From positions 96,001 to 160,000 of the forward strand of contig CAVQUB010000032.1 of assembly GCA_963716725.1 (NCBI GenBank): DNA of 64,000 bases. Reading direction: 5' to 3'. Of this stretch, positions 41,860-58,596 are shown in pieces. The stretch's first letter is position 1. Every line of letters begins with the position of its first letter. Source of the stretch: an uncultured delta proteobacterium (GTDB taxonomy: Bacteria > Myxococcota_A > Polyangia > Polyangiales > Polyangiaceae). Below the pieces are notes generated by a model. The model searched no databases. It saw only the letters and a list, made by a program, of their open reading frames with translations, and had not been told where the DNA came from. A program made the position numbers and the translations under genes.

Positions 41860-41896
41860 TTGCGCGAGAACGCTACGCCCATTACACTGGGTAATG
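41860..41896 (+). promoter_or_regulatory. Candidate promoter TTGCGC-17-TACACT with CATTAC-N5-GTAATG operator-like inverted repeat
   Basis: Immediately upstream of the antitoxin ATG (41899); the palindrome overlaps the -10 box, as expected for TA autoregulation. Confidence 0.6.
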
Positions 41897-41898
41897 CA

Positions 41899-42162
41899 AT
41901 GAGTGCTGCTTCGTCGCGAGTGACCGCGCAACATCAGATTTCGATTCCCGCCAATGTCCGTAGCAGACTGGGCATCGTTCCCGGCACGGAGCTCGTCTGG
42001 GAGGAACGCGACGGAGAATACGTCGTCAGGCCGAAGCGCTACTCTCTCGAGGACGTTCGCGCCGTGTGTGCGCGCCGCCCGGTGAAGGCTCGGTCGCTCC
42101 GCGCCATGCGCGCGGCACGCGATCGTGCCTTGAAGGCGAAACATGGCCGCGGCCGACACTAA
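41899..42162 (+). CDS. AbrB/MazE/SpoVT-type antitoxin
   Basis: SRVTAQHQISIPANVRSRLGIVPGTELVW; overlaps the PIN gene. Confidence 0.9.
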   Translation: MSAASSRVTAQHQISIPANVRSRLGIVPGTELVWEERDGEYVVRPKRYSLEDVRAVCARRPVKARSLRAMRAARDRALKAKHGRGRH

Positions 42163-42535
42163 CGTCCTGTTGCGCCTCTTGCTCGACGACGACGAGGAGC
42201 AAGCGCGTGCGGCGAGGGCTTTCCTGCGAGCGCATGCCCCGCTGTTCGTCTCGCATGTGGTGATCGTCGAGGCGTCGTGGGTGCTGTCGAGCGCATATCG
42301 GTTTTCGCGTAAACAGCTCGGGGAAGTCTTGAACATGCTGCTCGACACCGAAGGTTTGACCGTCGAGCGTCCCTCGATCGTCTCGGCAGCACTCCGCCAT
42401 TTCGGGGCATCGAGCGCTGACTTCTCCGATTGCTTGATCCTCGCGACGGCGCAGGCCGCTGCTGCCGCGCCACTCGCGACATTCGACCGAAAGCTCGCGA
42501 AGCTGTCGGGGGCACGGCAGATCGGACGCAAGTGA
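42143..42535 (+). CDS. vapC: PIN-domain toxin
   Basis: DTNVLLR, VIVEASWVL, ADFSDCLI, TFDRKL. Confidence 0.93.
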   Translation: MAAADTNVLLRLLLDDDEEQARAARAFLRAHAPLFVSHVVIVEASWVLSSAYRFSRKQLGEVLNMLLDTEGLTVERPSIVSAALRHFGASSADFSDCLILATAQAAAAAPLATFDRKLAKLSGARQIGRK

Positions 42536-42610
42536 GGTGACGCAGAGCACGGGGATCGGGCTGTGGCCCCGATTGCTCCGCCGCGGCCCGCCCCCAAGCC
42601 CCCAACTTAC

Positions 42611-42705
42611 TCACGCCCCAAACCAACGCCGATCCCGAAAGCTCCCCCGCCAGCGTCACCAAGATCTCCCTCGGGTCACTGGTCTTCAACGCCGGCAACG
42701 CCGCC
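42611..42705 (-). repeat. Copy A of the ArsA-family gene 3' end (about 95 bp)
   Basis: Encodes AALPALKTSDPREILVTLAGELSGSALV; aligns to the intact gene from its stop at 56483, with one extra base near the stop. Confidence 0.93.
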
Positions 42706-42778
42706 GGCACGCGGTCGAGGCGTGGCTCGTCATGCGGATTGCCCGCACCGACACTTGCCCCGATTACGCACGCGGCGC

Positions 42779-42979
42779 ATGGTTGTGGGATGCGGGGCGG
42801 CATCGGGCATCGGGCATCGGGCACTCGTACCGCTGTTGAGCGCCCTTCTCGGCTTGGGCTCCAGCGCCTGCGCACCGGAGGGGGACGGCGCGAGCGCCGG
42901 CTACAAGGTCAAGATCTTCCTCGCCTACTGGAACGGTCCCAGCGGGACGACGTTCGGGGTCGCGTGGGACTCGTGGTGA
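42779..42979 (+). pseudogene. Internally deleted copy of the S8 peptidase gene (leader fused in frame to the last ~25 codons)
   Basis: 42740-42899 matches about 53462-53684 and 42901 onward matches 55513 onward; about 1.8 kb missing; (ATCGGGC)x3 at 42802-42822. Confidence 0.85.
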
Positions 42980-42987
42980 GGGAGGCG

Positions 42988-43743
42988 ATGGTGCGGGCGG
43001 TCAGGATTTCAGCCGTGTGCCTGCTTCTGGCCGGGGTCGGCTCGAGCTGTGACGGCAACGTCGCGGGAGAGCCAGACGCCGGGGCGGCGGGCGCGGCCGG
43101 GTTCGGTGGCAGCGACGGAGCTCCGGGTGGGGGCGGTGGCGGCGCCCTCGACGGCTCCGCGGACGCCGACGGCCCCCTCGGGGCGTGCGCCGCGGAGCAG
43201 GCGGCGTTGATAGCGTTCGTGAAGGCGAACAAGGCATGCACGGCGGATGCGGACTGCGTCTTCGTCAGTGCGGAGTCCGGTATTCAGGAGCTTTGCCCGA
43301 GCCAACACATCCAGGCGGGCGGGTTCTACCTGAACGCCTCCCACGCCAAGGCAGAGTTCGAGAAGCTGGCCAATGCCCTCGACGCCTGTCTGCCTCCGCT
43401 TCTGCAGTGCAATCTGAGTCCCTTCCCGGCCGTATGCTGGCATGGGCAGTGCGAGGGCGGCCTGAGCGGCAAGACCCAATGCCTCTCAGACCTCGGCGGC
43501 GAGTCCGCATGTACGAAGTGCGCGTGTGGACCCTGCGCGTCTGCTTGCCGGGGTTTACCGGAGCGCCCCGTCGTCCTCTGTGCCCTGAAGGCCGGGTGCC
43601 TGGGCACGCCGAAGTGCGATCCGGCGTCGCCCGCCTTCCCGTGCAAAGAGATCCTCGCCAACTCGCCAGGCGAGACCTACCACTACTGCAACGAGTGCAT
43701 CGCGGACTGGCAGTGCGCGGCGGACTGCGCCGCCGGCAAGTGA
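42988..43743 (+). CDS. Cys-rich lipoprotein (intact paralogue of 55600-56358)
   Basis: GGAGG RBS, ATG 42988, VGSSC lipobox-like, Gly linker, many Cys. Confidence 0.8.
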   Translation: MVRAVRISAVCLLLAGVGSSCDGNVAGEPDAGAAGAAGFGGSDGAPGGGGGGALDGSADADGPLGACAAEQAALIAFVKANKACTADADCVFVSAESGIQELCPSQHIQAGGFYLNASHAKAEFEKLANALDACLPPLLQCNLSPFPAVCWHGQCEGGLSGKTQCLSDLGGESACTKCACGPCASACRGLPERPVVLCALKAGCLGTPKCDPASPAFPCKEILANSPGETYHYCNECIADWQCAADCAAGK

Positions 43744-43865
43744 GCGCGCAGGTTTGCGGTTGGAGTGCGCCGGCGCGACGCCACCCGACCGTGTCCTGAC
43801 CTGAACCAAGCGCAAGCGACGACCTGTGGTGGACCAGTGGCTTGCACCCTGCACGCCTCAGCGCC

Positions 43866-43991
43866 TCACCCCCCAACCAACGCCGTTCCCCCCAGCTCCC
43901 CCGCCAGCGTCACCAAGATCTCCCTCGGATCGCTGGTCTTCAAGGCAGGCAATGCAAGTAGCGGCGTCTTCTTCCGCACCATGCCCAACAG
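43866..43991 (-). repeat. Copy B of the ArsA-family gene 3' end (about 125 bp)
   Basis: Encodes GMVRKKTPLLALPALKTSDPREILVTLAGELGGTALVGG*. Confidence 0.93.
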
Positions 43992-44453
43992 GGATCGCCC
44001 AACTAGCCCTTAAACAAGCGCTTGCCGAGCCCGGTCGCGAGCCGTGTGAGCGTCAGGGAGCGGGACACACCACGACTGCCGACCTGCGCGAATCGCGCCT
44101 CGGCGCCGACCCGCTGCCCAGAACTCGATGTCCCATCGGCGGTCCGCCTCGAACCCCTTGCCGACACGGACGTGCCATTCGCTCATCAGGAGCGGATCGT
44201 AGCATCCGGTCGTAGCTCGGCCAACACGCCCGCGGCGTACCGCAACTGCGACTCGGTGCCGCCTGCGCCGACGATGCCTTCGACGCGCGTGAGCCGATTC
44301 GGGACGGACCAGTCGAGCACGGGCCCGCTGGAGCCGAGCGTCGCGTATCCAGCCCCACCCGACCGCAACAGCGACATCGAACGGCTCCCAGCACTCGAAA
44401 ACCTCGGGAATTTCGCGGTTCGGAAAGTCGAGTTGCAGGCCCGCGCAACCCTG

Positions 44454-44479
44454 GAAAGCCCTGTGACCGCAGGGCTTTC
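44454..44479. terminator. Hairpin GAAAGCCCTG-N6-CAGGGCTTTC, terminator-like
   Basis: Perfect 10-bp stem; only a weak T tail. Confidence 0.45.
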
Positions 44480-44521
44480 GCGTTTCTGCCACCTGCTTTG
44501 AACTTCGACCGTCGAGCCGCG

Positions 44522-44690
44522 ATGAGCAACGGCGAGAACGCGGACAATGAGAGGACGGCCGCGGTGCTCCCCGCCGCGATCGACGAAGGGATCGCCGAGC
44601 TCGATGCGGGTCTTGGGCAAGAGACGACCGAGGAGCTGATGGACGAGCTCCGTCGCGACGTGGGTCACCGTGGATGTCAGCGTGAGGCAG
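44522..44690 (+). pseudogene. ParD-like antitoxin remnant
   Basis: LPAAIDEGIAELDAGLG..TTEELMDELR resembles ParD C-termini; no cognate toxin follows. Confidence 0.45.
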
Positions 44691-44709
44691 GCTCGTCCAA
44701 CGCGTCATC

Positions 44710-45024
44710 ATGCTCGACCTGTTCATCCCGCCATCCGCGCGACGGCTGGTTCGCTACACCGTGCCCATCAACGTCCGCTTTGGCGCTGACCGTCTCCGCC
44801 TCGCCTGCAAACGCGACCTCGGGCTGACGCTCGATCCGGCGACCGCCGTGCGCTTTCATAATCGAAGGAAGGATACGCTCGTGCTCTACACGCGCGATCA
44901 GAGCGGTAATCGCTGCATCGCGAAGAAGCTGGAGCGAGGCGCGTTCCTCCTCCCCGTTCCTGCGGAGGGCCAGAAGTGCGTGGTGCTCAACGCCTCGAAG
45001 GTCGCGAGTCTGTTTCGCACGTGA
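44710..45024 (+). CDS. IS66 accessory protein TnpB (Orf2)-like, solitary
   Basis: PINVRFG.DRL, FHNRRKDTL.LY..D..G.....KKLERGAF.LP. Confidence 0.7.
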   Translation: MLDLFIPPSARRLVRYTVPINVRFGADRLRLACKRDLGLTLDPATAVRFHNRRKDTLVLYTRDQSGNRCIAKKLERGAFLLPVPAEGQKCVVLNASKVASLFRT

Positions 45025-45073
45025 TCGCGCCCGGAGCGCGCCCCTGCGATCCTGATCGGGCATGGTGGTGTAG

Positions 45074-45880
45074 ATGGCCTCCACGCACGTGTCCGACAGC
45101 GCCGAGCAGAGACGCGCCGAAGCCTTCGTGCTCAAGGCACTCGGGACGAAGCTTGGAGTCGAGCTCCTGCCACGCACGTTGCAGTTGCCGGACGGCTCAC
45201 TCGTCGAGATCGACGGAGGCGCGGACGGCCCGCCGCCGATTCTCGCGGAAGTCTACGCCCTCCAGGGTCGGCTGAAGGGAAGCCAACCGGACAAGCTGCT
45301 TGCCGACGCATTCAAGCTGGTGGCCGCACGCAGGCTCGCGATCCCCTGCGGCCACGCCCGCCTTCTGCTCGTCCTGACTGACGACGACGCTGCCCGCGGG
45401 TTGCGAGGTGGCTGGAGAAAGGCCGCGCTCACCGCGATGGAGGTCGAGGTGCACGTGGTCGCGCTCCCGACCGACATCGCAGCGGGGGTTCGGTCCGCCC
45501 AGAAGCGGCAGCAGATGGTGAACGCGGCCAAGCAGGGCGCCGGATCTGCGTTGCCTCCTCGCCAAAACGAGCGACTTCTCGGGCTGCACAGGATGGTGGC
45601 CGTTCCAACGCAAACCGGGCATCCTTTCATCATGCACGCGCACGCGAACGACCTCGCATCGGCAATCCCAAGCGCGCCGTTCGATGACCTCGACCTCGAC
45701 CGTCCCGAGGACGAGGAGGAGTGGGAGCGCCGGGTGATGGCGCTCGCCGCCGCGCGCATCGCGGCCGAGCGCGTCCGCCTCCAACGGCTCGGCATCATCG
45801 ACGCGAACGGCGATCTCGTCTCGCGCGAGTTGCCGCCGGACATGCTGCCCGACTCGGATACGACGCTCGAAACCGGCTGA
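45074..45880 (+). CDS. PD-(D/E)xK-like nuclease domain (to about 45525) in frame with a small acidic antitoxin-like protein (own ATG at 45632)
   Basis: VEIDG......LAEVYA.QG.LK.SQ..K...DAFKL; atypical linker; then MHAHAND..EDEEEWERR..LQRLGIIDANGDL..ELP.DM. Confidence 0.55.
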   Translation: MASTHVSDSAEQRRAEAFVLKALGTKLGVELLPRTLQLPDGSLVEIDGGADGPPPILAEVYALQGRLKGSQPDKLLADAFKLVAARRLAIPCGHARLLLVLTDDDAARGLRGGWRKAALTAMEVEVHVVALPTDIAAGVRSAQKRQQMVNAAKQGAGSALPPRQNERLLGLHRMVAVPTQTGHPFIMHAHANDLASAIPSAPFDDLDLDRPEDEEEWERRVMALAAARIAAERVRLQRLGIIDANGDLVSRELPPDMLPDSDTTLETG

Positions 45881-45886
45881 CCCGCG

Positions 45887-46471
45887 ATGTCGCAGCCGCG
45901 CATGATCGTCGTCGCCGGCCCCCCAGGCAGCGGCAAGACGAGGTTCTTCCCGGTCACGGGTTTCGGCGTCGATGCGTTCAACATCGACGACCGGTGCGCG
46001 CAGATCCTCGGGAGCTACCGCGCGATCCCGCGCGATGTCCGACGCGCCGTCGCGAAGGAGTGCGAGCGATTCGTCCTCGATCACATCATGCGACGGGAGT
46101 CGTTCGCGGTCGAGACGACGCTTCGGACCACGGCCGCGATCGGGCAAGCGGAGCTCGCACGCAAGAACGGCTTCGCCACCTTGATGCGCTTCGTCGCCAC
46201 GGACTCGATCGCCGAGAACGTGGCGCGCGTGCTGCAACGCGCGCAGGCGGGCGGCCACGGCGCGTCCGAGCGCGAGATCCGCGCGATCCATCAAGCGAGC
46301 GTCGAGAATCTCCGGAAGGCAGTCGGTACCTTCGAGCGCGTTCGTGTCTACGACTCGACCACACGATGGACGCCACCCCGGCTCGTCGCAGTCGCGCGCG
46401 GCGGGCGGCTCGTGGTTCAGGGAGCGACCCCCGGCTGGCTCGAAGCCGCGCTCGCGAACGGCGATGCGTGA
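45887..46471 (+). CDS. Zeta-toxin-like / AAA_33 P-loop NTPase
   Basis: VVAGPPGSGKT, FNIDD, SFAVETTL, RV.QR...GGH, VYDS. Confidence 0.85.
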   Translation: MSQPRMIVVAGPPGSGKTRFFPVTGFGVDAFNIDDRCAQILGSYRAIPRDVRRAVAKECERFVLDHIMRRESFAVETTLRTTAAIGQAELARKNGFATLMRFVATDSIAENVARVLQRAQAGGHGASEREIRAIHQASVENLRKAVGTFERVRVYDSTTRWTPPRLVAVARGGRLVVQGATPGWLEAALANGDA

Positions 46472-46826
46472 CTCACCGCCCAATCGCGATCGACCCAGCG
46501 AACGCTACCCAGACCTCGGAAACCCCCCGAAACTGCTGGGCAGGAAAGTCGAGTTGCTCGTGCACAGCACCCGGTCGGCCAGTGCCTGATCCGGAGCCTG
46601 ATGGTGCCCGCTGGCTCTTTGGCGAGCCGAAAGCAGCGCCCATCCGCCCGCTTCCGAACCGGCTCGACGAGCCAGGCTGAGGGCCGTGGAATCAGACGCG
46701 GGCACGGCATGCCAGGCGCTGGGCGGAAGGACGGGAACGGGCCCCAGCTCAAAAGGCACTCACCCCGCCACCAACGCCGTTCCCCCCAGCTCCCCCGCGA
46801 GCGTCACCAGGATCTCCCGCGGGTCA

Positions 46827-47333
46827 CTAGTGCCGCGCGGCCGAAGTTCGAGTGGATTCGCCCCTGAGACCTGCGCTCATTTGGGCTCTCACAGGAAGGG
46901 CGGAAGAGCGGAAGGATTTGGGGGGGTCAGGCGTGAGCCCCCGCAGGCCATTTCTGAGCGCGGTCACGTTGAAGTTGACGAGCAGGCCGCCAGGCAACTG
47001 CGAAAGGCGCAGATAGGTGATGACCTGCGCTTCGTGAATCGGGAGCAGCCGCTCGACCGCCCCGAGCTCCAGGAGGATATGATCTGGAAGCGACCAGGTC
47101 GAGGCGATAGGCGCAGTCAAGGTGCACGCCTTTTTGGCGGATTGGTAGCGGATTGGTAGCGGTCGCTGCCGCTCGAACCTGAGCCGTCGTTCGGACAGCT
47201 CGGCAGATAGACAGGCCTCGTATGCGGATTCCATCTGCCCTGGACCGAGATGCCGATGCACCTCGATCAGCGCACCGATCACCTCGTCCGTCCCATCCCC
47301 AAATCTTCCGAGCTTTCGCCCTTCCTGTGCCAT
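46827..47333 (-). pseudogene. GxxExxY protein, degraded
   Basis: VIGALIEVHRHLGPGQMESAYE, HEAQVITYL, GLLVNFN; an 11-bp duplication near 47137-47158 moves KGVHLDCAYRLDLV out of frame, later compensated; the usual ELK reads ELG. Confidence 0.88.
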
Positions 47334-47466
47334 CCCCGTGCGAGCGGAACCGTCGGACGACCACCGTGCGCTCGGCCCGCGAACGCGCTGTAGTCGATCA
47401 TGTCACCCCACTACACCGACGACACGCACACGGAAAAGAAACCAGCGAAACTTCTGCCGCGCGCCA
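46831..47466. mobile_element. 636-bp non-autonomous inverted-repeat element carrying a GxxExxY gene
   Basis: Left end TGCCGCGCGGCCGAAGTT, reverse complement of right end TGGCGCGCGGCAGAAGTT (16/18); CTAG duplicated at 46827-46830 and 47467-47470; removal restores copy C. Confidence 0.85.
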
Positions 47467-48352
47467 CTAGTCTTCAACGCCGGCAACGCCGCCAGCGGCG
47501 TCTTCTTCGGCACCATGCCGGCCAGCGCGGTCAGCGCCTGCCGCGTCTGACCTTCCCGCGCCCCGAACTCCCTCCGATACGCGGCGATCGCGTCGCCGAG
47601 GGCGGGCTCACTGCCGATGCGCGCTTCGATTTCAGAAATCCACGCGGGCGTCGCGCCCACCGCGCGATTCAGCAACACCGCGGTCGCATCCAGCGATCGA
47701 TCCCGGAGCTGGCCGATCAGGTACTCCGCGTCGTCGAGGGAGCTGCCGCTCGGGCCGGTCACGACCACGTAGCGCGTGCTCCCTCTTCAGGGACTTGCCC
47801 CTCCGGGCACTTCCCAGGGTCGTCCCAGGGTCGTGGGCAGCGCGATGCGCTTCTCGACGTTGCGCACTAAGTGCAGCCACTTCTCGCGCACCGGCATGAA
47901 CTCCCCGAACAGCGCCGCGATGTCCCGGATCGCGATGGCGCCGACCACGTTCGAGACCAGGTTGTTCCTGCCTCCCCTCGTCTCGCTTCGCTCGCCGGTC
48001 CCCTCCAAGCCCGGTGCGCGCGAGGGGTGGCGTCATGTCAGAAACGCGCACGCCTTGCCGACGCTCGCGCGCACGCGGGCGGAGGGGACGCGTTGCTCCG
48101 GGTGAGTGGCGTTCGTATTCGCCGGGCGTAGGTGGTCCCGAACGGAGCCATGTGGTGGCTCTGGCTGTAGAACTCCTTGAACGCTTCGGCGCAGCGGCGC
48201 CACCTCATAGTCGGGTGGAGGGGACGCGTCGCTCCGCGCTGGGTGCGCGCTCGCCACCTGTGGGCAAGGCTCGCGAGTGGATCAAGCCGTCCTCGGGCCG
48301 TGAGGCATTTGCCGGATGGCGTCGAGCGCCCGAACGAGGACACCGAGGTGGA

Positions 48353-48643
48353 TCACGATCCCGCCGCGGCAGGCCGCCCGGGGTGGATCAGTCGGTGGCC
48401 CGCGAATGGATCAGTCTTAAGCCGCCGCCAAAGCTCGGGCGTCCTGCGATCCTGCTCCCAGTTAAGAAGCGTGTGCACGCTGATCCCGAGCGGCTCGGCG
48501 AACTTCGCCTGACTCAGCCCGATGAATCGCCGTAGGGCAGCGACGTCCCCCGGTTCAAGCTCTCCACGCATGATGCGCTCGCGCTGGCTCCGCCGCAGGT
48601 GTCGTGCAAAGTCGGCTCGGGTGAGTTCACGGGTAGACTTCAT
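48353..48643 (-). CDS. HTH (XRE/HigA-like) antitoxin-type protein, C-terminus probably damaged
   Basis: VAALRRFIGLSQAKFA..LGISVHTL.NWEQ.RR.PE. Confidence 0.75.
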   Translation of the reverse strand: MKSTRELTRADFARHLRRSQRERIMRGELEPGDVAALRRFIGLSQAKFAEPLGISVHTLLNWEQDRRTPELWRRLKTDPFAGHRLIHPGRPAAAGS

Positions 48644-48688
48644 GACCACTTGATGCCGCTCGCTCGCAGCACTTCGCGCGGAACTTCC

Positions 48689-49180
48689 TCAAGCAACCGC
48701 TTGCCACTCGCGCCCCGAAACACGGAGGTTGATCTTCGCCGGCTCGTGACTGTTGGAGTCGATGTTCGCCAACTTCTCCAGTGGGTACTCCTCAATGGGA
48801 CGACCGTGCACCACCATCATGCGGAGAAGCCGGTCGGACTGCTCTCCGATCGGAAGGGCATCGTTCTCCCACTTGGAGAGAATGGTCGGATCCACACCAA
48901 CATGGCGGGCAAAATCGACCCCCGAAAACCCGAGTATCTTCCGCAAGAATCGTACCTCCATCCCCGTGAGCCGGCTCGGCTTCATGGTGACGGCGAGTGC
49001 GATGGCTCGATGAAGATGTTCCACGGCGGAGATGATCACCACGTGCTCTTTGCACATGGGGCAGCGGCGCACCTCCACGTTGTCGAGCCACACATTCGGG
49101 AGCCCCGAATCGGTGTAGTTCACGCGCTCTCGCCCGCTAACGAGATCGCCTTTGCCGCACGCTCTGCACTTTCGTTTCAT
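48689..49180 (-). CDS. MqsA-like antitoxin (zinc finger + HTH)
   Basis: CRAC...GLPNVWL.NVEVRRCPMC, RLTGMEVRFLRK.LG.SG..FA..VGV....SKWEN. Confidence 0.88.
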   Translation of the reverse strand: MKRKCRACGKGDLVSGRERVNYTDSGLPNVWLDNVEVRRCPMCKEHVVIISAVEHLHRAIALAVTMKPSRLTGMEVRFLRKILGFSGVDFARHVGVDPTILSKWENDALPIGEQSDRLLRMMVVHGRPIEEYPLEKLANIDSNSHEPAKINLRVSGREWQAVA

Positions 49181-49479
49181 GGCTGTGATCTCCAAACCGT
49201 CACGACGACCAGCTCGATGTCGTTCTCATCCTCCGCCTCATCGGGGGCAGGCTCGAAGGCAACGACCACCGTGATCCGCTGCGTTCGAACCCGATATCGC
49301 CAGTCTCCGTTCTCGTGCTCCGCCTCGCTGACCGTGCCGGCGCGGAGCACGTTGACGATGTCGACGTCGTTGAGCTGGTCCTTGTCGCGTTCCCTTCGGG
49401 CGTGAGGCGTCAGGTGGAAACTCCCCGCCTGCATGAGCTGGCGGATGAGCCTCTTCGCATCGTCTTTCCGAAGAGGCAC
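49177..49479 (-). CDS. DUF4258-like putative toxin
   Basis: FHLTPHARRE.....L...DI.NVLRAG, WRYRV, LVVVTVW; ATGA overlap with the MqsA-like gene. Confidence 0.8.
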   Translation of the reverse strand: MPLRKDDAKRLIRQLMQAGSFHLTPHARRERDKDQLNDVDIVNVLRAGTVSEAEHENGDWRYRVRTQRITVVVAFEPAPDEAEDENDIELVVVTVWRSQP

Positions 49480-49487
49480 CCATAGGA

Positions 49488-49515
49488 AGCCTAGCCAGGC
49501 TTGGTAAATTGTCAA
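49488..49515 (-). promoter_or_regulatory. Candidate promoter TTGACA-16-TAGGCT for the DUF4258/MqsA-like operon
   Basis: Consensus -35 read on the minus strand just upstream of the start. Confidence 0.6.
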
Positions 49516-49652
49516 GATGGGCACCTGCTGCCAAACGCCCGACGCAGGGCTCAAATCAGCTTGTCCAGTCCACGCGTGGCGTGATCTGCGGTGGACCGGG
49601 TGTCTGCGGATCACGGTGAGGGCAACTACTCCGATCAACTACCCGAGGTGCT

Positions 49653-49985
49653 GCGTCTGACCTTCCCGCGCCCCGAACTCCCTCCGGTACGCCGCGATCG
49701 CGTCGCCGAGGGCGGGCTCTGCGCCAACGCGCGCTTCCAGCTCGGGGATCCACGCCGGCGTCGCGCCCACCGCGCGATTCAACAGCACCGCGGTCGCGTC
49801 CAGCGATCGATCCCGGAGCTGGCCGATCAGGTACGCGGCGTCGTCGAGGGAGCTGCCGCTCGGCCCGGTGACCACCACGTAGCGCGTGCCGGGCAGCGCG
49901 ATGCGCTTCTCGACGTTGCGCACCAGGTGCAGCCACTTCTCGCGCACCGGCATGAACTCCCCGAACAGCGCGGCGATGTCCCGGA
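49653..49985 (-). repeat. Copy D of the ArsA-family gene 3' part (333 bp, equivalent to 56626-56958, truncated at both ends)
   Basis: Encodes RDIAALFGEFMPVREKWLHL...YRREFGAREGQT without indels. Confidence 0.95.
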
Positions 49986-50033
49986 GCGACGGCTGCGGGT
50001 AGTGAAAACCCAACCTCGCCGGGAGAATCGTGA

Positions 50034-50145
50034 TCACGCTGCGAGCCTGTTGTATCGGCGGTGCAATCCGCCGACCCTCGGAAGCTCGACGACGCGACCC
50101 ACCGAGCGAAGCTCGAGGGGACGCGACTCCGGGCAGTCGTTGGCG
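50034..50145 (-). pseudogene. C-terminal remnant of an integrase-core (rve) transposase
   Basis: HLANDCPESRPLE..VGRVVELPRVGGLHRRY.R.AA*. Confidence 0.6.
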
Positions 50146-50284
50146 AGGTGTGGCTTCGGCGCGACCAGGTTGCGGATGGGCGAAGTAGCCACGACAACGC
50201 GCCCTACTCGCCTAAGTTCGCCCATCCGCTTTGGTCTGGCGAGCCTCTTGCTTCCCCGTGCGGGCGAGCCAGAAGCGCGGTACC

Positions 50285-50533
50285 ATGACCGGCATGCACG
50301 CGCGGAAGCTGCGAGTTGCCAACGGTCGGCTGGTGCTCGATGAACCCACGAACCTGCCCGACGGCGCGGAGGTGGAAGTCGTTGTCATCGACGACGGACT
50401 GAGCGCCGAGGAGCGCGCAGACCTCCACGCCTCGCTGGACCGCGCACTGGACGACTCAGAAGCGGGTCGAGGAATGGACGCTTGGGAATACCTGGAGCAG
50501 TATCGAGCCCGTCGTGAAGCTCGTCCTGCTTGA
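50285..50533 (+). CDS. Putative antitoxin
   Basis: RVANGRLVLDEPTNLPDGAEVEV..D.LSAEERA.LHASL..A....EAG; overlaps a RelE/ParE-like gene. Confidence 0.7.
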   Translation: MTGMHARKLRVANGRLVLDEPTNLPDGAEVEVVVIDDGLSAEERADLHASLDRALDDSEAGRGMDAWEYLEQYRARREARPA

Positions 50534-50729
50534 AGAGGCGCAGCGGCAATTTGCAGCTGAGGACGCTTGGTGGCGCGAGAACCCCGACGCGAAGAACCTG
50601 TTCATCGAAGAATTCTCCGCGATGAGCTAATCCAACGCACGCTGATGAAGAAGGCCCGCTGCCACGTCTACTACTTCCACGACCAAGAGCAGGGCGTCAT
50701 CGAAGTCCACTCGGTCTGGGGTGGTCGCC
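50514..50729 (+). pseudogene. RelE/ParE-family toxin, internally deleted/frameshifted and cut by an IS21 end
   Basis: VKLVLLEEAQRQF..EDAWWREN...NLFIEEF then frame change to R.LMKK..CHVYY.......IEVHSVWG. Confidence 0.7.
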
Positions 50730-51071
50730 TGCGCATTTCGCCCATGGTGATCACCTGTTTCACAGCATCCTGATCGCTCAATCCGCCGCATCCTGATCGG
50801 AGCGAAGCGACGTCCGAGTTGTTCGTGTGTCCTGGTTTCTCCTCGTTGGGTTCGGGTCAGCGTATCGCTCGATCCGCGCCTGGCTCAATCCGGCGCGTGC
50901 GTGCAGGTCACGGGGCGTCGGCGGCCGTCTTGCGTCGCGACGGACCCTTGAGCGCGATCCGGTGCGCAGTGTGGAGCACGCGGTCACAGATGGCGTCCGC
51001 CGTGGTTGGGTCGGTGAGGTAGTCGTACCAGTGCTTCGGGTCGATCTGGCTGGTGATGATCGTCGCCCAGC
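50730..51071 (-). mobile_element. istB: IS21-family remnant: terminal repeat region plus 3' end of istB (50908-51071)
   Basis: TGCGCATTTCGCCCATGGTGATCAC end with repeated GCATCCTGATC; ATIITSQ...[30 protein letters not shown]. Confidence 0.85.
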
Positions 51072-52558
51072 TACGGCGCTGAACATTCTGTAGCCGTCAC
51101 GATGCAATTGCACACCGCGAAAACCTTCGCTTTTTTCCGACTCTCCGCGCGCCAATACTGACGCGCCCGTGCATGCTCTGCTGACGACATGAGCACTCGC
51201 TCCCGCCGCACGTACGACCACCGCATCAAGCAGCAGATCGCCGAGACCGGGGATCCGGGGCTGTTTCCGGAGCTCGAGATCCCGCGCTCGACAGTTCGGA
51301 GCTGGATCCGGCGAGGCATGGGGAGCGTCGTCTGTCTGGAGCCGAACCTTGGCGCGGAGGGCGAGCTTCGCGCTCGTGTCGTCGTGCTCGAGCGGCGGAC
51401 CGCGGTGCTCATCACAGTTGTTCGACTGCTTCTGGCATTGCTACGCACTTCTGGATTCAAGCTCGAAACCTGCCGCGTGCCGGATGCGGCCGGCAAGCGA
51501 CTCTTGCTCGATGCGATCGAGCGCGCACGAAAGGTCATGGCCTTATCCGCGGCGCTCCGAGTGCTCCGCCTCTCCCGAGCGCGCTATCACGTCTGGTTGC
51601 GAGCCGAAAAAGCATGCGATCTCGACGACCGCCCAAGCTGTCCGCGCACTGTGCCGCAGCGACTGACCCAGCCGGAGGTCGAGGCAATCGGCAGCCTGGT
51701 TCAGTCCAAGGAACATCGCCACATGTCCATCCGAGCGCTGGCTTTGCACGCCCAGCGCGTCGGTGAAGTCCTCGCTCACCCGGCAAGCTGGGGCAAGCTC
51801 ATCCGACGCTACGGCTGGCGGCGGCCGAGACTCCGTCTCTACCCACCGAAACCCAAGGTCGGCGTGCGCGCGCTCGCGCCGAACGCCGCGTGGCACGTGG
51901 ATGTCACGATCATCAAGCTGCTCGATGGAACGAAAGCGCACTTGCACGCAGTCATCGACAACTTCTCTCGGAGAATCCTCGCCTGGACGATCGCCGACCG
52001 ACTCGATCCCATGAACACCCGCGACGTGCTTGTGAGGGCGGCGAGCAACCTGGAGGGGCCGATGACAGCAGAGGTCTACATGGACTCCGGCGTCGAGAAC
52101 CTCAACGCCAGCGTGGACCCGCTCTTCAGTGAAGGTTTCCTTCGCCGCGTCATCGCGCAGATCGACGTGAGCTTCTCGAACTCGATGATCGAATCGTGGT
52201 GGCGCTCCCTCAAACATCAGTGGCTGTTCCTGCACCAACTCGACAGCATCGCGACCGGCAAGAGGCTCGTGGAGTTCTACGTGGTCGAGCACAACGAGCG
52301 GATGCCCCACAGTGCGTTCGACGGGCAGACCCCGGACGAGATGTACTTCGGGCGCGGGGCTCGAGTGCCTGCCGAGCTCGCTGCTCGGCGGCAAGAGGCG
52401 CGCAAGCGGCGGCTGGACCACAATCGTCAACAAGCGTGCGACCGGTGCTCCCGTCAACACGAGGAGGACGTCGCCGCATGAAGCGTACGCTGCTTTCGAC
52501 CGGGAGTTCTGGCGAGCGCAGTTGCACAGCGTCAGCTCCAGAAGGTTCGGCGCCGCAG
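51072..52558 (+). mobile_element. Complete IS with single-ORF rve/DDE transposase (IS3/IS481-like)
   Basis: About 43-bp imperfect terminal inverted repeats (51069-51111 vs 52518-52560, 33/43 by eye); no target duplication seen. Confidence 0.85.
51189..52481 (+). CDS. DDE-type transposase (integrase core)
   Basis: PNAAWHVDVT, VIDNFSRRILAW, MDSGVEN, NSMIESWW..LK, HN...PHSAF.GQTP.E.Y. Confidence 0.92.
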   Translation: MSTRSRRTYDHRIKQQIAETGDPGLFPELEIPRSTVRSWIRRGMGSVVCLEPNLGAEGELRARVVVLERRTAVLITVVRLLLALLRTSGFKLETCRVPDAAGKRLLLDAIERARKVMALSAALRVLRLSRARYHVWLRAEKACDLDDRPSCPRTVPQRLTQPEVEAIGSLVQSKEHRHMSIRALALHAQRVGEVLAHPASWGKLIRRYGWRRPRLRLYPPKPKVGVRALAPNAAWHVDVTIIKLLDGTKAHLHAVIDNFSRRILAWTIADRLDPMNTRDVLVRAASNLEGPMTAEVYMDSGVENLNASVDPLFSEGFLRRVIAQIDVSFSNSMIESWWRSLKHQWLFLHQLDSIATGKRLVEFYVVEHNERMPHSAFDGQTPDEMYFGRGARVPAELAARRQEARKRRLDHNRQQACDRCSRQHEEDVAA

Positions 52559-53401
52559 CTGGCTTACGGCAACTGCGACCTGTTCCGACTCGTCACCTAC
52601 GATGCCGGCGCTTGCTCGAAGCAAAACGCCCAGGCCGCACGTGACCGCGGGCTTCACTACCTGATGGCCATCAAGAGCACACAGCCGACACTGCACGAAG
52701 AGGCCGTGCGCTGGTTGGGTGAACGTGCGCCGGCACAAGCAGCAGCAACCAGCAGCGACTTCGACCACGGCAACACCGTGGTGCGTCGGCTCTACCTCGG
52801 TGAGGCCGGCGCCGCGCCAGAAGGCTGGGACCACCTGCGCACCGTGCTCCGTGTCGAGGTCGAGACGCTCGACCAGAACGGCAATCGCATCACGGCGGAA
52901 AACCGCTACTTTGTTTCGAGCTTGCCACGCTCTCGGCTGACGGACGCGCAATGGCTCCTCGTCGTGCGTCGCCACTGGGGTGTCGAGACCTCCCACCAAA
53001 TTCTCGACACGGCTTTCGCTGAGGACGACCACCCGTGGATCGAGCAGAACCCGCGAGCGACCGTCGTCGTGATCGTGTTGCGCCGCGTCGCCTATACCCT
53101 GCTCTCACTCTGGCGCGGCGTGACTTTGCGCAGCGACGAGCAGCGCACTCGGCCTTGGCGCGACGTGATGCGCGACATTCTGCTCGCTGCCGTCACCGCC
53201 ACGGCCGAACACCTTCGCGCTTTGCGCCGCCATCGACTCGCGCCCGTCGCCACGTAGTCGAGAAGTCAGGCCTTGCGCCGCCTCGCTCTTTGACAGATCC
53301 GCTCCGGTCACCAGCCCTGGCTTCCGCCCCCTGGCGCTAGCCCTGGTCGGCGAGCCGAGCGCGGCCACGCCCCCCGGTCATCGCCCTCGCCCTTGCCCCT
53401 G
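52559..53401 (+). mobile_element. ISAs1-family remnant: 5'-truncated transposase (stop 53257) and probable right end
   Basis: VTYDA, YLMAIK.TQPTL, ENRYFVSSL, VRRHWGVE..H..LD..F.ED; ends ...CCTTGCCCCTG. Confidence 0.82.
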
Positions 53402-53455
53402 ACTCTCGCACTGGCCGGCGAAGGCCGCGCTCGGCTCGCCGACTTCCGATCAAGA

Positions 53456-55591
53456 GTGCTGTGCCCGCACCGACGCTTGCCCCGACCACGCACATGGCGT
53501 ACGGTTGGGACATGCGGGGCGGCATCGGGTATCGGGTATCGGGTATCGGGCATCGGGCATCGGGCATCGGGCATCGGGCATCGGGCATCGGGCATCGGGC
53601 ATCGGGCATTCGTAGCGCTGTTGAGCGCCCTTCTCGGCTTGGGCTCCAGCGCTTGCGCACCGGAGGGGGACGGCGAGAGCGTCGCGCGTGGCATTCACCT
53701 GCTCTCTGCTCCGCCCCTGGCCTGTGACAATGGCGTGTTCCTCACGGACCATCATCGATTCGAATACATCGGAGTCTCGGTGACGCGCATGCTGTGCACG
53801 CCCACCGGCCTCGTGTTGCCGTCTGTCGTCACGGTTGACTCCAAGACCGGCGCGGTCGTGGAATTCGCGCGATTGGCCGACGCCGATCGCGCAGCGTTTC
53901 ACGGCTGGCACGCTTCGCTCGACCCTCAGTTTCGCTCGACGCTCGAGGTGAAGCCAGACGAACCGCGGGACGCGTACGTCTGGTTCTACGTCGACGAGAG
54001 CGATGCCCCCGAGAAGGAGTGGCTGGTCGGCGAACCCACTGCCGCCGCGGCGACCGTGGCACTACGCGAAAGCCGGATGCGGTCAGCGGCTGCCTCGCTT
54101 TCCAACAAGCTGCATGCTGTGTCAGCGGTCGATGTCGCAACGGACGTGCTCGGACCTCAGGAGTACTGAATCCCGGTCGTGCGCGTTCGCGCCAAGCTTG
54201 CCGACTTGGAAGAGGTCGGAACCTGGCCCGAGGTGTGGCGAATTGACCCCGTGCCCACGACGTTCACGCCGCAGTCGGATACCTATTACTACACCACCGT
54301 GGACAACGTTTTGGACGGCTATTTCGGGTACGACGGAACCGGGCGGACCGTCGCGATGTTCGAGCAAGCCCGCCCTGATTCGTGGGCCAATCTTCCCGGC
54401 GCGGTCGCTGGCTCCTGCGCCAGACGACTTCAACGTCCAGAAGAAGTGTCATTGTGCCGCGGGGACGAAACACGCGCATCCTCGATTGGTTGCGGGCGTC
54501 GTCCGGCGGTCATGGCATGGGAATGGCCAACGAGGCTTCGACTATCGCGGCAAACCATCTGGGCGGCTGCCAGTCCAACGGTCCGGACTCGATCTCGAGC
54601 GCACTGAACTGGGCCACGTCCAACGGCGCTCAGGTGATCGTGACGACGGACATGATCACCCCGGGATCGGCGCTCGACTTCTTCTTCGACTACAAAGCCA
54701 GCGTGTCGCCCTACCCAACCATCGTAGGCGTGGCTGGAAACGACTCAGGGTCAACGTCGGATCTCACCACCGAAACGGACTTGTGACCGGCGGGGCGCTC
54801 GAGTCGCCCTCCGGCAACAGCAACCGGGGCGCGGCAACGACAGACCCCACGAAGTCCTGGAGGAACCCAACGGGAACGGCGGGCTTCGAGGTTCCGCACA
54901 TCGCCGCCATTTCCGAGGACGTTACCAGCGCTGGCTACGACCGCAAGCACAGTGGTGGATACCGGCGGGACGAGCGTCGCGGCACCGCAGGTGGCGGGTG
55001 TAGCGGCCTCGCTCCACGAGGCAAATTCCGCCATCAGGAGCTGGCCGGAGGTCATGGTCCCCGGACTGATGGTAAGCGCAAACGAGGACCTCGACGGGAT
55101 CCGGTTGAATCTCCACGATGACTGGGACGATCGCGACGGTGCAGGGCTGCTGAACGCCCATCATGCGCTCCTCGTGCTCCAGTCCTCATCGAGGGTCCAC
55201 GGCAACAACGCGCCGCCTGCGTGCGGGTCACGACTACCACGGTCTGACTGCCTACAGTACGCCCGAGCAGACGTTCTAGGTTGAAGAGTACTCGGCCCGG
55301 GTGCCTGCCGGGCTCGAGCTCCGAGTCGCCGCGCTCCTCCAGGCTCGACCAACGTGCCCGCAGAACCCCGGCTCCGGGTCGTGCACCGCCGATCCGTATC
55401 CGAACTTCGGGCTGTTCATTTACGACGGCTCGACGCTCGTCGGCGGGGCCTTGAACACCAGCAGCAACTACCAGTACATCTCGCACTTCAACACGACGGG
55501 CGTCCAGAAGGACTACAAGGTCAAGATCTTCCTCGCCCACTGGAACGGTCTCAGCGGGACGACGTTCGGGGTCGCATGGGACTCGTGGTGA
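53456..55591 (+). pseudogene. S8 (subtilase) peptidase lipoprotein with an in-frame stop and several frameshifts
   Basis: GSSAC lipobox-like; TGA at 54167; fragments HAHPRLVAG, GVAGND and GGTSVAAPQVAG lie in different frames; ends AWDSW*. Confidence 0.82.
53524..53607. repeat. Heptamer tandem repeat: (ATCGGGT)x3 + (ATCGGGC)x9
   Basis: Counted directly, 12 units, 84 bp. Confidence 0.95.
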
Positions 55592-55599
55592 GGGAGGCG

Positions 55600-56358
55600 A
55601 TGGTGCGGGCAGCCAGGGTTTCAGCCGTGTGCCTGCTTCTGGCCGGGGTCGGCTCGAGCTGTGACGGCAACGTCGCGGGAGAGCCAGGCGCCGGAGCGGC
55701 GGGCGCGGCCGGGCTCGGTGGCAGCGGCGGAGCTCCGAGCGGTGGCGGTGGCGGCACCCTCGACGGCGCCGCGGACGCCGACGGCCCCCTCGGGACGTGC
55801 GCCGCGGAGCAGGCGGCGTTGATAGCGTTCGTGAAGGCGAACAAGGCGTGCACGACGGATCCGGACTGCGTCTTCGTCAGTGCTGAGTCCGGCATTCAGG
55901 AGCTTTGCCCGAGCCAATACATCCAGGCGGGCGGGTTCTACCTGAACGCTTCCCACGCCAAGGCAGAGTTCGAGAAGCTGGCCACTGCCCTCGACGCATG
56001 TCTGCCTCCGCTTCTACCGTGCAATCTGAGTCCCTTCCCGGCCGTATGCTGGCATGGGCAGTGCGAGGGCGATCTGACAGCGGCAAGACCCAATGCCTCT
56101 CAGACCTCGGCGGCGAGTCCGCATGCACGAAGTGCGCGTGTGGACCCTGCGCGTCTGCTTGCCGAGGTTTGCTGGAGCGCCCCGTCGTCCTCTGTGCGCT
56201 GAAGGCCGGGTGCCTGGGCACGCCGAAGTGTGATCCGGCGTCGCCCGACTTCCCGTGCAAAGAGATCCTCGCCGAAATCGCCAGGTGAGACCTACCACTA
56301 CTGCAACGAGTGCATCGCGGACTGGCAGTGCGCGGCGGACTGCGCTGCCGGCAAGTGA
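55600..56358 (+). pseudogene. Cys-rich lipoprotein, frameshifted paralogue of 42988-43743
   Basis: Near-identical DNA; frame breaks near 56075 and 56275. Confidence 0.82.
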
Positions 56359-56482
56359 GCGCGCGAGGTTTGCGGCTGGAGTGCGCCGGCGCGACGCCCC
56401 CCGACCGTGTCCTGACCTGAACCAAGCGCAAGCGACGACCTGTGGTGAACCAGTGGCTTGCACCCTGCACGCCCCAACGCAC

Positions 56483-57598
56483 TCACCCCCCAACCAACGC
56501 CGACCCCGAAAGTTCCCCCGCGAGCGTCACCAAGATCTCCCTCGGGTCGCTGGTCTTCAAGGCAGGCAACGCCGCCAGCGGCGTGTTCTTCGGGACCATT
56601 CCGGCCAGCGCGGTCAGCGCCTGCCGCGTCTGACCTTCCCGCGCCGAAAACTCCCTCCGGTACGCCGCGATCGCATCGCCGAGGGCGGGCTCACTGCCGA
56701 TACGCGCTTCGATTTCGGGGATCCACGCGGGCGTCGCGCCCACCGCGCGATTCAGCAACACCGCGCTGGCATCCAGGGATCGCTCGCGCAGCTGACCGAT
56801 CAGGTACGCGGCGTCGTCGAGGGAGCTGCCGCTCGGGCCGGTCACGACCACGTAGCGCGTGCTGGGCAGCGCGATGCGCTTCTCGACGTTGCGCACGAGG
56901 TGCAGCCACTTCTCGCGCACCGGCATGAACTCCCCGAACAGCGCCGCGATGTCCCGGATCGCGATGGCGCCGACCACGTTCGAGACCAGGTGGCCGACGC
57001 GCTTCTTGCCCCAGGCCAGGAGGCCGCGCTCCCTCTTCAGGGACGTTCCAGGGTCGTCCGTCGGGCGATCGTCGAGGGCCGATCCCGCGAGCTTGGCCAG
57101 GCCCACCATCCACTCGAGCGTGCGCGCTTCGAGCATGCGGCCCAGCCGTGCGGGGTAATCCAGAAACTCCAGCGCGTGGCGAGAGGGCGCGGTGTCGAGC
57201 ACGACTTCGTCGTAGCGGCCGGATTCGAGCTCGTGGTCGATGAAGGCCACGCTGATCAGCTCGTGCACTCCGGCCAGCGCGTTCGACAGCTCGCGGTACA
57301 TGCCGTTCTCGAACACGCGGGTGCGCGCGGCCGGATCGTCGAACAGCCAGCTCACGAACAGATCGACCGACTTCTCTGCATCGGGCATGCGGGCCCACAG
57401 CTGGGCGCCGTCGATGTTCACCGGGCAGGCTTCGATGCCAACCTGCACGCCGATCGCGTCGGCGAGGCGGCGCGCTGGATCCACCGTGACCACCAGCGTG
57501 CGCCGGCCCGCGCGGGCGAAGGCGAGGGCGAGGGCCGCGGAGGTCGTGGTCTTGCCGACTCCACCGCCGCCCACCACCACCGTCAGCGCCGCGCTCAT
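56483..57598 (-). CDS. ArsA/Get3-family ATPase (downstream gene of a tandem pair)
   Basis: GGGGVGKTT, VTVDPARRLADA, YDEVVLDTAPSRHALEFL, LLNR. Confidence 0.93.
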   Translation of the reverse strand: MSAALTVVVGGGGVGKTTTSAALALAFARAGRRTLVVTVDPARRLADAIGVQVGIEACPVNIDGAQLWARMPDAEKSVDLFVSWLFDDPAARTRVFENGMYRELSNALAGVHELISVAFIDHELESGRYDEVVLDTAPSRHALEFLDYPARLGRMLEARTLEWMVGLAKLAGSALDDRPTDDPGTSLKRERGLLAWGKKRVGHLVSNVVGAIAIRDIAALFGEFMPVREKWLHLVRNVEKRIALPSTRYVVVTGPSGSSLDDAAYLIGQLRERSLDASAVLLNRAVGATPAWIPEIEARIGSEPALGDAIAAYRREFSAREGQTRQALTALAGMVPKNTPLAALPALKTSDPREILVTLAGELSGSALVGG

Positions 57599-58455: not shown

Positions 58456-58596
58456 CGCTCGACCTTTTAGGGGCTCCGCGCCAGCGCGCCAACAGGATAG
58501 AGCGCGCCCGGGCCGTCTTGGCGAAGGATCGGGCATGACGCGCGGAAACCGCGGCGAGCTCGGACGAGCGCCCGCCGGGTCGACCGCGAGGCGGCT

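Follow-up and report, generated by a model that had tools for sequence, protein, structure and literature searches.

An intact gene for an ArsA-family ATPase, here called ArsA2, heads a stack of its own spare ends in a 64,000-nt stretch of DNA (the window) from a myxobacterial genome: further, 5'-truncated copies of its 3' part follow downstream, with blocks of cargo genes between them. The stack holds no recombinase, and spare ends in several genomes of the genus adjoin, to the base, the outer end of a structured element that we call T, which forms the same kind of joint behind many unrelated genes. We see an even chance that this is an accretion array, in which each arrival added a replacement ArsA2 3' part and moved the older end downstream, with the joint that closed the arriving circle at the outer end of T. 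The window comprises positions 96001-160000 of contig C32, in the interior of that 342-kb contig, and all feature coordinates given here are window-based unless a contig is named. Its source, G000, is a metagenome-assembled genome (MAG) of a soil/groundwater myxobacterium (7.9 Mb in 35 contigs, 84% complete), which we compared with six other genomes of its genus in the Polyangiaceae (G001 to G006).

ArsA2 stands second in a tandem pair of ArsA genes behind a SIMPL-family gene (Table 1), and encodes an ArsA_ATPase domain with an N-terminal P-loop. Full-length orthologues with 82-90% amino acid identity are found in G001-G003 and G005, and in G001-G003 ArsA1, the first member of the pair, keeps its synteny with both the SIMPL gene and the gene at 60135. 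BLASTN of the window recovered four copies of the 3' part, A to D, all downstream of the head gene and on its strand, and BLASTN of the genome found spare copies at no other place. The fourfold recurrence in one orientation, which an earlier note on this DNA had described, is therefore real. That note had also drawn C as one run at 46760-47962, reaching the stop-codon region as A and B do. C does reach it, but as a single copy split by a 646-bp element, while D is internal to the gene and lacks the last 139 nt. In the ArsA2 copies of all genomes, homology ends no more than 11 nt past the stop codon, and unrelated cargo starts there. The spares are 71-97% identical to the head protein, and the C-terminus is not polymorphic, being homologous through the stop codon. 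The 5' limits of the repeats, which are 72-750 nt long, vary: fragments start at gene nt 364, 608, 631, 759, 775, 851, 997 and 1020, and only nt 364 recurs. These are not short direct repeats with one fixed crossover.

The ArsA2 gene is present in all six of the other genus genomes, and two of these have stacks of their own. G003 has four spares downstream of its intact gene, with starts at nt 364 (two of them), 759 and 775, and one more fragment, the fifth, on a separate contig. G002 has a spare comprising nt 364-1080, 99.4% identical to its own gene, and a second comprising nt 998-1080. The same genome encodes a second, full-length ArsA2 paralogue (G002 C2:939746-940830, L035) that spans two reading frames and shares 83% identity with the first; 3.6 kb downstream of it is a short fragment of the paralogue abutted by T2, one of the forms of T. 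The array design has thus been copied to this second locus. In G005 the ArsA2 fragments lie at contig ends, and in G001 the contig stops 1.4 kb downstream of ArsA2. G004 and G006 have a single ArsA2 copy each, with no stack in the 16-18 kb downstream that we examined. Small toxin-antitoxin pairs (PIN, HepT/MNT, DUF433/DUF5615) make up most of the cargo in the relatives, which has no relation to that of G000. Since stacks recur in relatives with different cargo, we regard them as biology rather than an assembly artefact. A single end with constant downstream genes, the pattern that the earlier note had set against its own reading of the locus, is not what G002 and G003 have.

T is a two-hairpin element of 100-150 nt that occurs in the forms T1, T2 and T1b. 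Read from its 5' side, it consists of a box containing AAC, a long, imperfect hairpin of C-rich/G-rich sequence (T1, about 100 nt; T2 and T1b, about 40 nt), a short GC hairpin and a tail, GAG(GG/TT)GG(G/A)GGCA, which is followed by a 6-nt spacer. The flanks diverge after this spacer, at a position that we denote T+6; the joint is thus 17+6 nt past the second hairpin. By RNAalifold, compensatory changes occur at 10 of 39 pairs in an alignment of 12 T1 sequences and at 6 of 22 pairs in one of 14 T2/T1b sequences. No Rfam family matched the 40-60 kb part of the window at E<=0.1.

Seven of the 14 ArsA2 spares that we found in four genomes adjoin the outer end of T to the base: C in G000; c2, c3 and c4 in G003; c1 and the second-locus fragment in G002; and a spare on L078, a contig of a G005-type MAG. 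Gene nt 364 is joined to T1 plus ACCCTG in G002 and G003, to T2 plus ACCCTG in G003, and to T2 plus CAAACA on L078. That three T variants, in three species, all meet the gene at this nucleotide suggests that the joining involved a site-specific or end-specific step. The same right-hand side is also found joined to differing T bodies. In G002 and G003, T is upstream of the cargo operons and divergent from them, so it does not serve as their terminator there. Sequences after T+6 have no common motif, and we found neither a T-like target motif nor a motif common to the cargo-side joints. We also rejected the notion that T tails generally lie next to open frames, as the median longest open run beside them is 115 aa, versus 192 aa in random controls.

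A covariance model built from T1, R1, matched 30 sites in G000, 32 in G002 and 39 in G003, each of which has an ArsA2 stack; 17 in G001 and 15 in G005, where the ArsA2 locus is cut by a contig end and by contig ends, respectively; and 3 each in G004 and G006, which have no ArsA2 stack. T-rich genomes (15-39 copies) thus have stacks or broken loci, and T-poor genomes have none. Beyond the genus, R1 matched only weakly in five further genera of the same family and not at all in the 16 additional families that were searched.

We scored 52 T sites, comprising all sites in G000 plus the fetched clusters of G001, G002, G003 and G005. At 21 of them, T adjoins a same-strand duplicate of a segment that lies 0.9-24 kb upstream, inside a long open reading frame (ORF), and the upstream copy has no T; at four, the duplication includes T itself. 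There are 70 duplication 5' boundaries between -600 and +500 nt of T ends, and T+6 is no more than 3 nt away from 21 of them. This corresponds to 3.0 boundaries per nt, against 0.045 per nt elsewhere, an enrichment of about 67-fold. The orientation of T follows that of the head gene, with same-strand duplicates at 28 sites and opposite-strand duplicates at two. The 21 sites are not independent, because several have the same head gene.

At least eight unrelated head genes, ArsA2 included, show this design. The others are hemB, purC, and genes for a YkuD transpeptidase, a GNAT acetyltransferase, a papain-like protease, a 1250-aa kinase/AAA/TPR protein and a 1453-aa Rhs protein. The Rhs case, found in G000, is a classic main gene and orphan with different C-termini, and T is located at the 5' joint of the orphan. 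Fragments at the head genes other than ArsA2 mostly start in the last 10-65 codons; some duplications end 2-10 nt past the stop, and others run about 220-270 nt further. Since the same T-ended joint is found behind at least eight unrelated genes, ArsA2 is one landing pad among many, and the design is not specific to the ArsA gene. A candidate second stack at C5:760-772 kb was discarded, as it proved to be only a 56-78-nt repeat without a head gene.

The spare copies follow the gene of the genome in which they reside. They are 90-99.4% identical to their own genome's gene and 74-80% identical to the genes of other species; the values are 93% for C (456 nt aligned) and 90% for D (345 nt) in G000, 92% for c2 and c3 in G003 (723 nt), and 99% for c1 in G002 (717 nt). 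The nt-364 joint is common across species, yet the sequence on its gene side follows the resident gene; such an architecture, whether old or recurrent, indicates that the gene and its spares undergo gene conversion or crossover. The alignment of B to the head gene is patchy in a similar manner. Homologous exchange between ArsA2 and its spares is evident from these comparisons.

For the accretion array that we propose, the likeliest route is that put forward for Rhs toxin arrays: a circle made of a gene 3' fragment and cargo would join the resident gene by a single homologous crossover, presumably of the RecA type. The insertion would shunt the older gene end downstream and leave the head gene intact, and continued homologous exchange would keep the spares like the resident gene. 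The closing joint of the circle would lie at the exact outer end of T, at the far end of the cargo, with T acting like the fixed end of a one-ended module (rolling-circle-like or attC-like) that is served in trans. We hold a wider version of this more tentatively, at somewhat short of an even chance. Here T would define a genus-wide system of cassettes: an enzyme acting in trans would cut or join T 6 nt past ...GGCA and so close circles of cargo plus the 3' end of whichever gene is upstream, the captured gene tail would serve as a homology arm, and the circle would land behind the same gene in other cells without damaging it.

No tyrosine or serine recombinase is encoded in the stack, as the earlier note had stated. 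None of the genome's 19 matches to PF00589 is on C32, and PF00239 (resolvase) has no match in the genome at its 84% completeness. In G002 and G003, no tyrosine recombinase is found within ~120 kb of the stacks, the nearest being about 120 kb away, and Pfam searches of 117 GC3-filtered ORFs from these two stacks found no recombinase. The families that recur best near T are DUF559 and Y2 transposases, with four T regions each. Genes for DUF559 proteins (Vsr-like endonucleases) lie within 0-450 nt of T at three places, one in G002 (L033:6804-7505) and two on contig C34 of G000, which we consider a weak lead towards a T-associated nuclease.

G000 does encode a bona fide integron integrase, IntI, on another contig than the stack (C8:394023-395201; TIGR02249, 434 bits versus a cutoff of 265). 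It is located beside an array of ~165-nt canonical attC sites, 0.5-1.2 kb apart, at C8:385-395 kb. More attC clusters are found at C7:148-158 kb, next to another tyrosine recombinase match, and at C34:138-157 kb, on a contig without an integrase match; Polyangiaceae integrons appear to be sizeable. T1b copies occur inside an attC array, and the duplicated segment of purC ends at an integron attC core, immediately after ...CCAGTTA. Over G000:C34:137687-150800, T elements and canonical attC sites are interleaved behind purC, an array that seems to take both integron cassettes and T-ended units. We rejected T itself as a canonical attC: the genome's attC family next to intI on C8 (GCCTAAC...GTTATGC) differs from it and has no copies on C32, and T1 lacks GTT at its 3' box.

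PF04986 (Y2 transposases) has 14 matches in G000, none of them on C32, and none of 14 control genomes matches; the genus as a whole is rich in these transposases. A ~3.9-kb IS91-family element is found at G000:C13:124000-132000, with copies on C8, C5 and C13. Many of its copies are 5'-truncated, and all stop at the same fixed right end, as is typical of one-ended rolling-circle elements. The tip that adjoins copy D in the window, ER, maps as the left end of a ~3.9-kb Y2-transposase element, and one T in G002 is located within an IS91-like element, ~150 nt inwards from its transposase-upstream end. Two further candidates were set aside. An IS110 bridge RNA came into consideration through an IS110 gene beside a T2-like site in G002, but G000 has no PF01548 match; and the two RVT_1 matches that would speak for a reverse-transcriptase route are not generally near T.

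Several observations weigh against the accretion array with T at its closing joint. Within the window, an intact T is found at only one of the four spares, C. There is no T at the 5' joint of A, the 5' flank of B resembles a decayed T tail by eye only and was missed by the R1 model, and the joint of D is formed by the IS91-type tip instead of T. No upstream duplicate is present at 27 of the 52 T sites, and these 52 include paralogous repeats of the same head genes. G004 and G006, the two T-poor genomes, are at the same time the most divergent, and related genomes do not count as independent. We found no enzyme acting on T, and no gene family recurs near T beyond four regions. The Y2 counts (5/16/34/4/12) do not follow T abundance, nor does the presence of IntI, which is intact in G004 with its three T copies. 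T is not the oriIS of the IS91-like elements that we could define either, as their seven full right ends share a different sequence and no T lies at the ends of Y2 genes. Because no candidate enzyme tracks T or recurs near it, the causal role that we give to T is argued from association. Finally, no circle was seen in the public short-read contigs (runs X1, X3 and X5 among them), which are short and of about 4-5x depth. One X3 contig does join 49652 back to 47543, the joint expected from recombination of D with C, but the 34 nt common to both sides may make it a k-mer artefact. G000 is a MAG, and these contigs cross only some of the joints.

Some of the same evidence could reflect site-specific accretion by a recombinase that is encoded elsewhere in the genome and joins T-ended cassettes to gene 3' ends in trans, with T as an arm of its attachment site and homologous recombination only homogenising the repeats afterwards. 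The base-precise joints at T+6 and the recurrence of nt 364 with three T variants would suit such an enzyme, as would the joining of one right-hand side to different T bodies, which resembles attC x attC exchange, and the loss of homology in every ArsA2 copy no more than 11 nt from the stop codon. The genome also has a well-scoring IntI, T1b copies in an attC array and a purC duplicate that ends at an attC core. We nevertheless consider this alternative unlikely, because the fragment starts vary widely, from nt 364 to 1020, and each of at least eight unrelated head genes would need a matching fragment. Furthermore, T1 lacks the GTT core, the cargo-side joints have no common motif, IntI does not follow T, and no recombinase gene recurs near T.

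Displacement could alternatively be driven by homology only, with T incidental, for example as a terminator-like repeat that ends many cassettes. The model that Jackson et al. (2009, PMC2935791) put forward for Rhs arrays needs no special site, accounts for concerted evolution and an intact head gene as well as for the order and orientation of the copies, and would keep a T-fragment joint once it had formed. Half of the ArsA2 spares (7 of 14) have no T, and more than half of the T sites have no duplicate, which also fits. However, the model does not explain why the joint is at the exact end of T, where duplication boundaries are so strongly enriched, nor why the same gene nucleotide is joined to three T variants. 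A terminator would not be expected upstream of, and divergent from, the cargo operons of G002 and G003, and an incidental repeat would not be expected to follow the orientation of the head gene (28 sites versus 2). We therefore think it quite improbable that T is a bystander. The earlier note's integrase-free, homology-anchored stack accordingly holds in part: the stack is real, it is free of recombinases and homology is used in it, but its joints are not made by homology alone, as half of them lie at the end of a T.

A more mundane explanation is that the locus is the debris of local rearrangements in a mobile-DNA junkyard, in which insertion sequence (IS) insertions, adjacent deletions and tandem duplications occurred without any traffic of cassettes. 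The IS pile in the stack, the IS91-type tip at the joint of D, the miniature inverted-repeat transposable element (MITE) in C and the Cys-rich block duplicated at 94% identity are all of the kind that this predicts. Debris would hardly yield copies that all have the same orientation, cargo that is fully different between units and between genomes, or a design that recurs in three species and behind housekeeping genes. It would also not predict what we see in a contig of run X5, from an independent groundwater study. This contig covers both joints of B with 11 differences, and matches B and its upstream joint before turning into fully different sequence from 44114 on, ~130 nt upstream of B. A related strain thus has other cargo at this place, a case of population-level cargo variation at a fixed boundary; we judge the debris explanation to be very unlikely.

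The least probable explanation by far, in our view, is an assembly artefact in which strain haplotypes were concatenated in the MAG. The short public contigs leave room for it: they give the bin 55804-56357 almost no coverage in X1 and X5, and the contig pieces listed leave most joints unbridged. Still, the copies differ by 7-17%, which is above strain-level variation, each has its own cargo, and the locus is well inside a long contig. Contigs of X1 and X5 bridge some of the joints, an X1 contig crossing the 5' joint of B with 0 mismatches, and an X3 contig crosses the 3' side of C. G002, which is assembled in 5 contigs, and G003 have the same design. In this analysis of joints in the reads, those with less than 30 nt on either side were ignored; a joint between 47834 and 50104 on opposite strands, seen in three runs, matches another locus, C1:160.4 kb.

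The cargo of the window was assigned by Pfam searches of all 121 window ORFs of >=70 aa (Table 1). Pfam agrees with what the earlier note had read from the sequence for the AbrB-VapC-type pair (MazE/AbrB plus PIN), the IS66 Orf2-like gene, the zeta-like NTPase, the DUF4258, MqsA-like and helix-turn-helix (HTH) genes and the IS pile. Its RelE/ParE-type toxin-antitoxin system found no such backing, as none of the eight small ORFs at 50.0-50.8 kb matches Pfam, and its S8 protease is reduced to a single 110-aa piece with E=3e-4, under the Pfam cutoff. PADLOC gave no real defence-system match among 18 proteins.

Table 1. Features of the ArsA2 stack, in window coordinates and in order from the head gene downstream
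Feature	Position	Strand	Basis and remarks
ArsA1, ArsA-family ATPase, first gene of the pair	57598..58536	-	Pfam ArsA_ATPase, E=1.3e-16
ArsA2, intact head gene, 371 aa	56483..57598	-	Pfam ArsA_ATPase (PF02374), E=1.7e-27 over residues 7-168; GC3 0.89
Cargo 1a, Cys-rich protein region and broken protease-like gene	53393..56482	+	Only a weak Peptidase_S8 piece, 54952-55281
Cargo 1b, IS pile: rve-type IS and DDE_Tnp_1 IS fragment	51065..53459	.	Pfam rve, DDE_Tnp_1; two transposases, 51189-53254
ER, outer tip of the transposase-upstream end of an IS91-family element, adjoining D	49991..50148	-	11 genome copies, all ending ...CACCACCCACA
Spare copy D	49649-49993	-	Gene nt 631-977; 90% to intact gene, 92% to C; without stop region
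Cargo 2, DUF4258, MqsA-like and HTH genes	48356..49638	-	Pfam
T1 element, tail ...GGCA plus 6 nt adjoining C	47959..48110	-	Covariance model R1, 147 bits, E=1.5e-33; base-precise junction in the alignment
Spare copy C, upstream part	47453-47962	-	From gene nt 608; BLASTN 83%
MITE/IS-like element with PD-(D/E)XK_3 gene, inside C	46827-47472	-	Pfam PDDEXK_3 (PF13366), E=3e-29; 646 bp
Spare copy C, last part	46753-46831	-	Gene nt 1045-1116 plus 7 nt; 83%
Cargo 3, IS66 Orf2-like gene (44710-45021), 268-aa ORF without match, zeta-toxin-like NTPase (45887-46468)	44710..46468	+	Pfam; no PADLOC match
Spare copy B	43866-43985	-	Gene nt 997-1116; 86%
Cargo 4, second Cys-rich block, protease region deleted	42740..43865	+	Duplicate of 53462-53684 plus 55513-56480
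Spare copy A	42600-42708	-	Gene nt 1020-1116 plus 11 nt; 91%
Cargo 5 or original flank, MazE/AbrB antitoxin and PIN toxin	41860..42532	+	Pfam MazE_antitoxin E=2.4e-8, PIN E=7.8e-15

The 646-bp element has perfect ~15-bp terminal inverted repeats, a CTAG target and about 26 copies in the genome. Six copies are of a short form and about 20 of a long form, which carries an insert of 436, 620 or 1103 nt at internal point 47340. Because the copies are 94-99% identical, the element was recently active. Copies of cargo 1b are found elsewhere in the genome, at 98-99% identity on C10 and C1 and at 89-91% on C5 and C12. Segment 55513-56480 of cargo 1a is 94-97% identical to 42901-43864, and B together with its cargo (42901-43985) is a 94% duplicate of 55513-56602. 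The window differs from the short-read contigs of up to three runs by seven single-base indels at 54419-56365; because these are 1-nt indels, the broken protease-like and Cys-rich frames may be assembly errors (residual long-read homopolymer errors). Outside the stack, at 40616-40735, four tandem 24-nt repeats (Gly/Asn/Ala/Thr/Ser-rich when translated) lie in a 469-aa ORF with a weak polysaccharide-lyase match.

Polymorphic toxins are known to exchange their warheads by way of displaced-gene-end arrays. In the arrays described here, the same architecture serves ordinary genes (those for an ArsA-type ATPase and a transpeptidase, hemB and purC), whose protein is unchanged and whose payload is unrelated, which would make conserved gene tails docking sites, general and harmless, for gene flow in the large genomes of myxobacteria. 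T at the joints is the first concrete handle on the excision and closure of the cassettes, a step that the Rhs model left open. If T is the substrate of an enzyme, it would belong to a new gene-capture module that can be found with a covariance model. If the wider reading, in which T defines a genus-wide cassette system, is true, this would be integron-like gene capture in which any conserved gene tail plays the part of 'attI', and it would answer the question of Jackson et al. about the origin of the first circle in Rhs-type displacement.

How do these arrays compare with known systems? We take the orphan arrays of CdiA to be a further Rhs-like displacement analogue of the ArsA2 stack. In the passages of Jackson et al. 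(2009, PMC2935791) that deal with the arrays, homologous recombination excises a circle consisting of a core fragment, tip and genes, and a single crossover re-inserts it and shunts the old end downstream; the Neisseria mafB loci are named there as analogous. Displacement had thus already been proposed as a mechanism, and the ArsA2 stack is neither ArsA-specific nor new in principle. Like the Rhs arrays, it has an intact gene followed by 5'-truncated fragments of variable length in the same orientation, with intervening genes (G000 and G003 have four spares each, G002 two), and the fragments match the resident gene closely. Rhs arrays, unlike the ArsA2 stack, have different C-terminal tips with immunity genes. 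The head gene of the ArsA2 stack encodes a cytoplasmic ATPase (elsewhere, the head gene is hemB, purC or another gene), and what changes is the unrelated cargo downstream: toxin-antitoxin pairs, HTH genes and IS elements. A T hairpin at the joint, found in stacks of the ArsA2 type, is neither predicted by the Rhs model nor reported in those passages.

Integrons and clusters of attC sites lacking integron-integrases (CALINs) consist of co-oriented small cassettes, often with toxin-antitoxin genes, that each end in a discrete, imperfectly palindromic site that is conserved at its ends and variable in the middle, and the recombinase can be located at a distance. T arrays have such cassettes, and the genome has IntI and canonical attC arrays. 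T is nevertheless unlike the genome's attC and T1 has no complete AAC...GTT core, the joint is 17+6 nt past the second hairpin, and the cassettes of T arrays, unlike those of integrons, bring along a spare head-gene end. Composite staphylococcal cassette chromosome (SCC) elements at rlmH are tandem integrative islands at the 3' end of a gene, and some members lack a recombinase of their own and are mobilised in trans. They share with the ArsA2 stack cargo blocks between direct repeats of one gene's 3' end, units without a recombinase and a gene that stays intact. The ArsA2 repeats are longer, however, with variable 5' limits in place of a short fixed att, and there are many head genes and no identified cognate recombinase.

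In the rescue model for the insertion sequence common region element ISCR1 ('complex class 1 integrons'), a 5'-truncated partial duplicate of the flanking gene region is formed. IS91 and ISCR elements would resemble the T units in having a fixed hairpin end and a variable other end; Y2 genes are abundant in G000, and the joint of D is an IS91-type tip. As set out in PMC13181058, oriIS of IS91 has two imperfect subterminal palindromes, the other end varies by failed termination, and intermediates are circular. The differences are that T is not an element terminus, that no conserved target tetranucleotide follows T+6, and that Y2 counts do not follow T. In the open-access full-text literature (supplements excluded), we found no account of T-like elements or of displacement arrays on non-toxin genes. 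What appears to be new is displacement-type stacking behind ordinary, non-polymorphic genes with unrelated cargo, and a structured element at its joints. By analogy, the closest mechanistic counterpart of a single fixed hairpin end combined with a variable other end would be the one-ended rolling-circle transposition of IS91 and ISCR elements.

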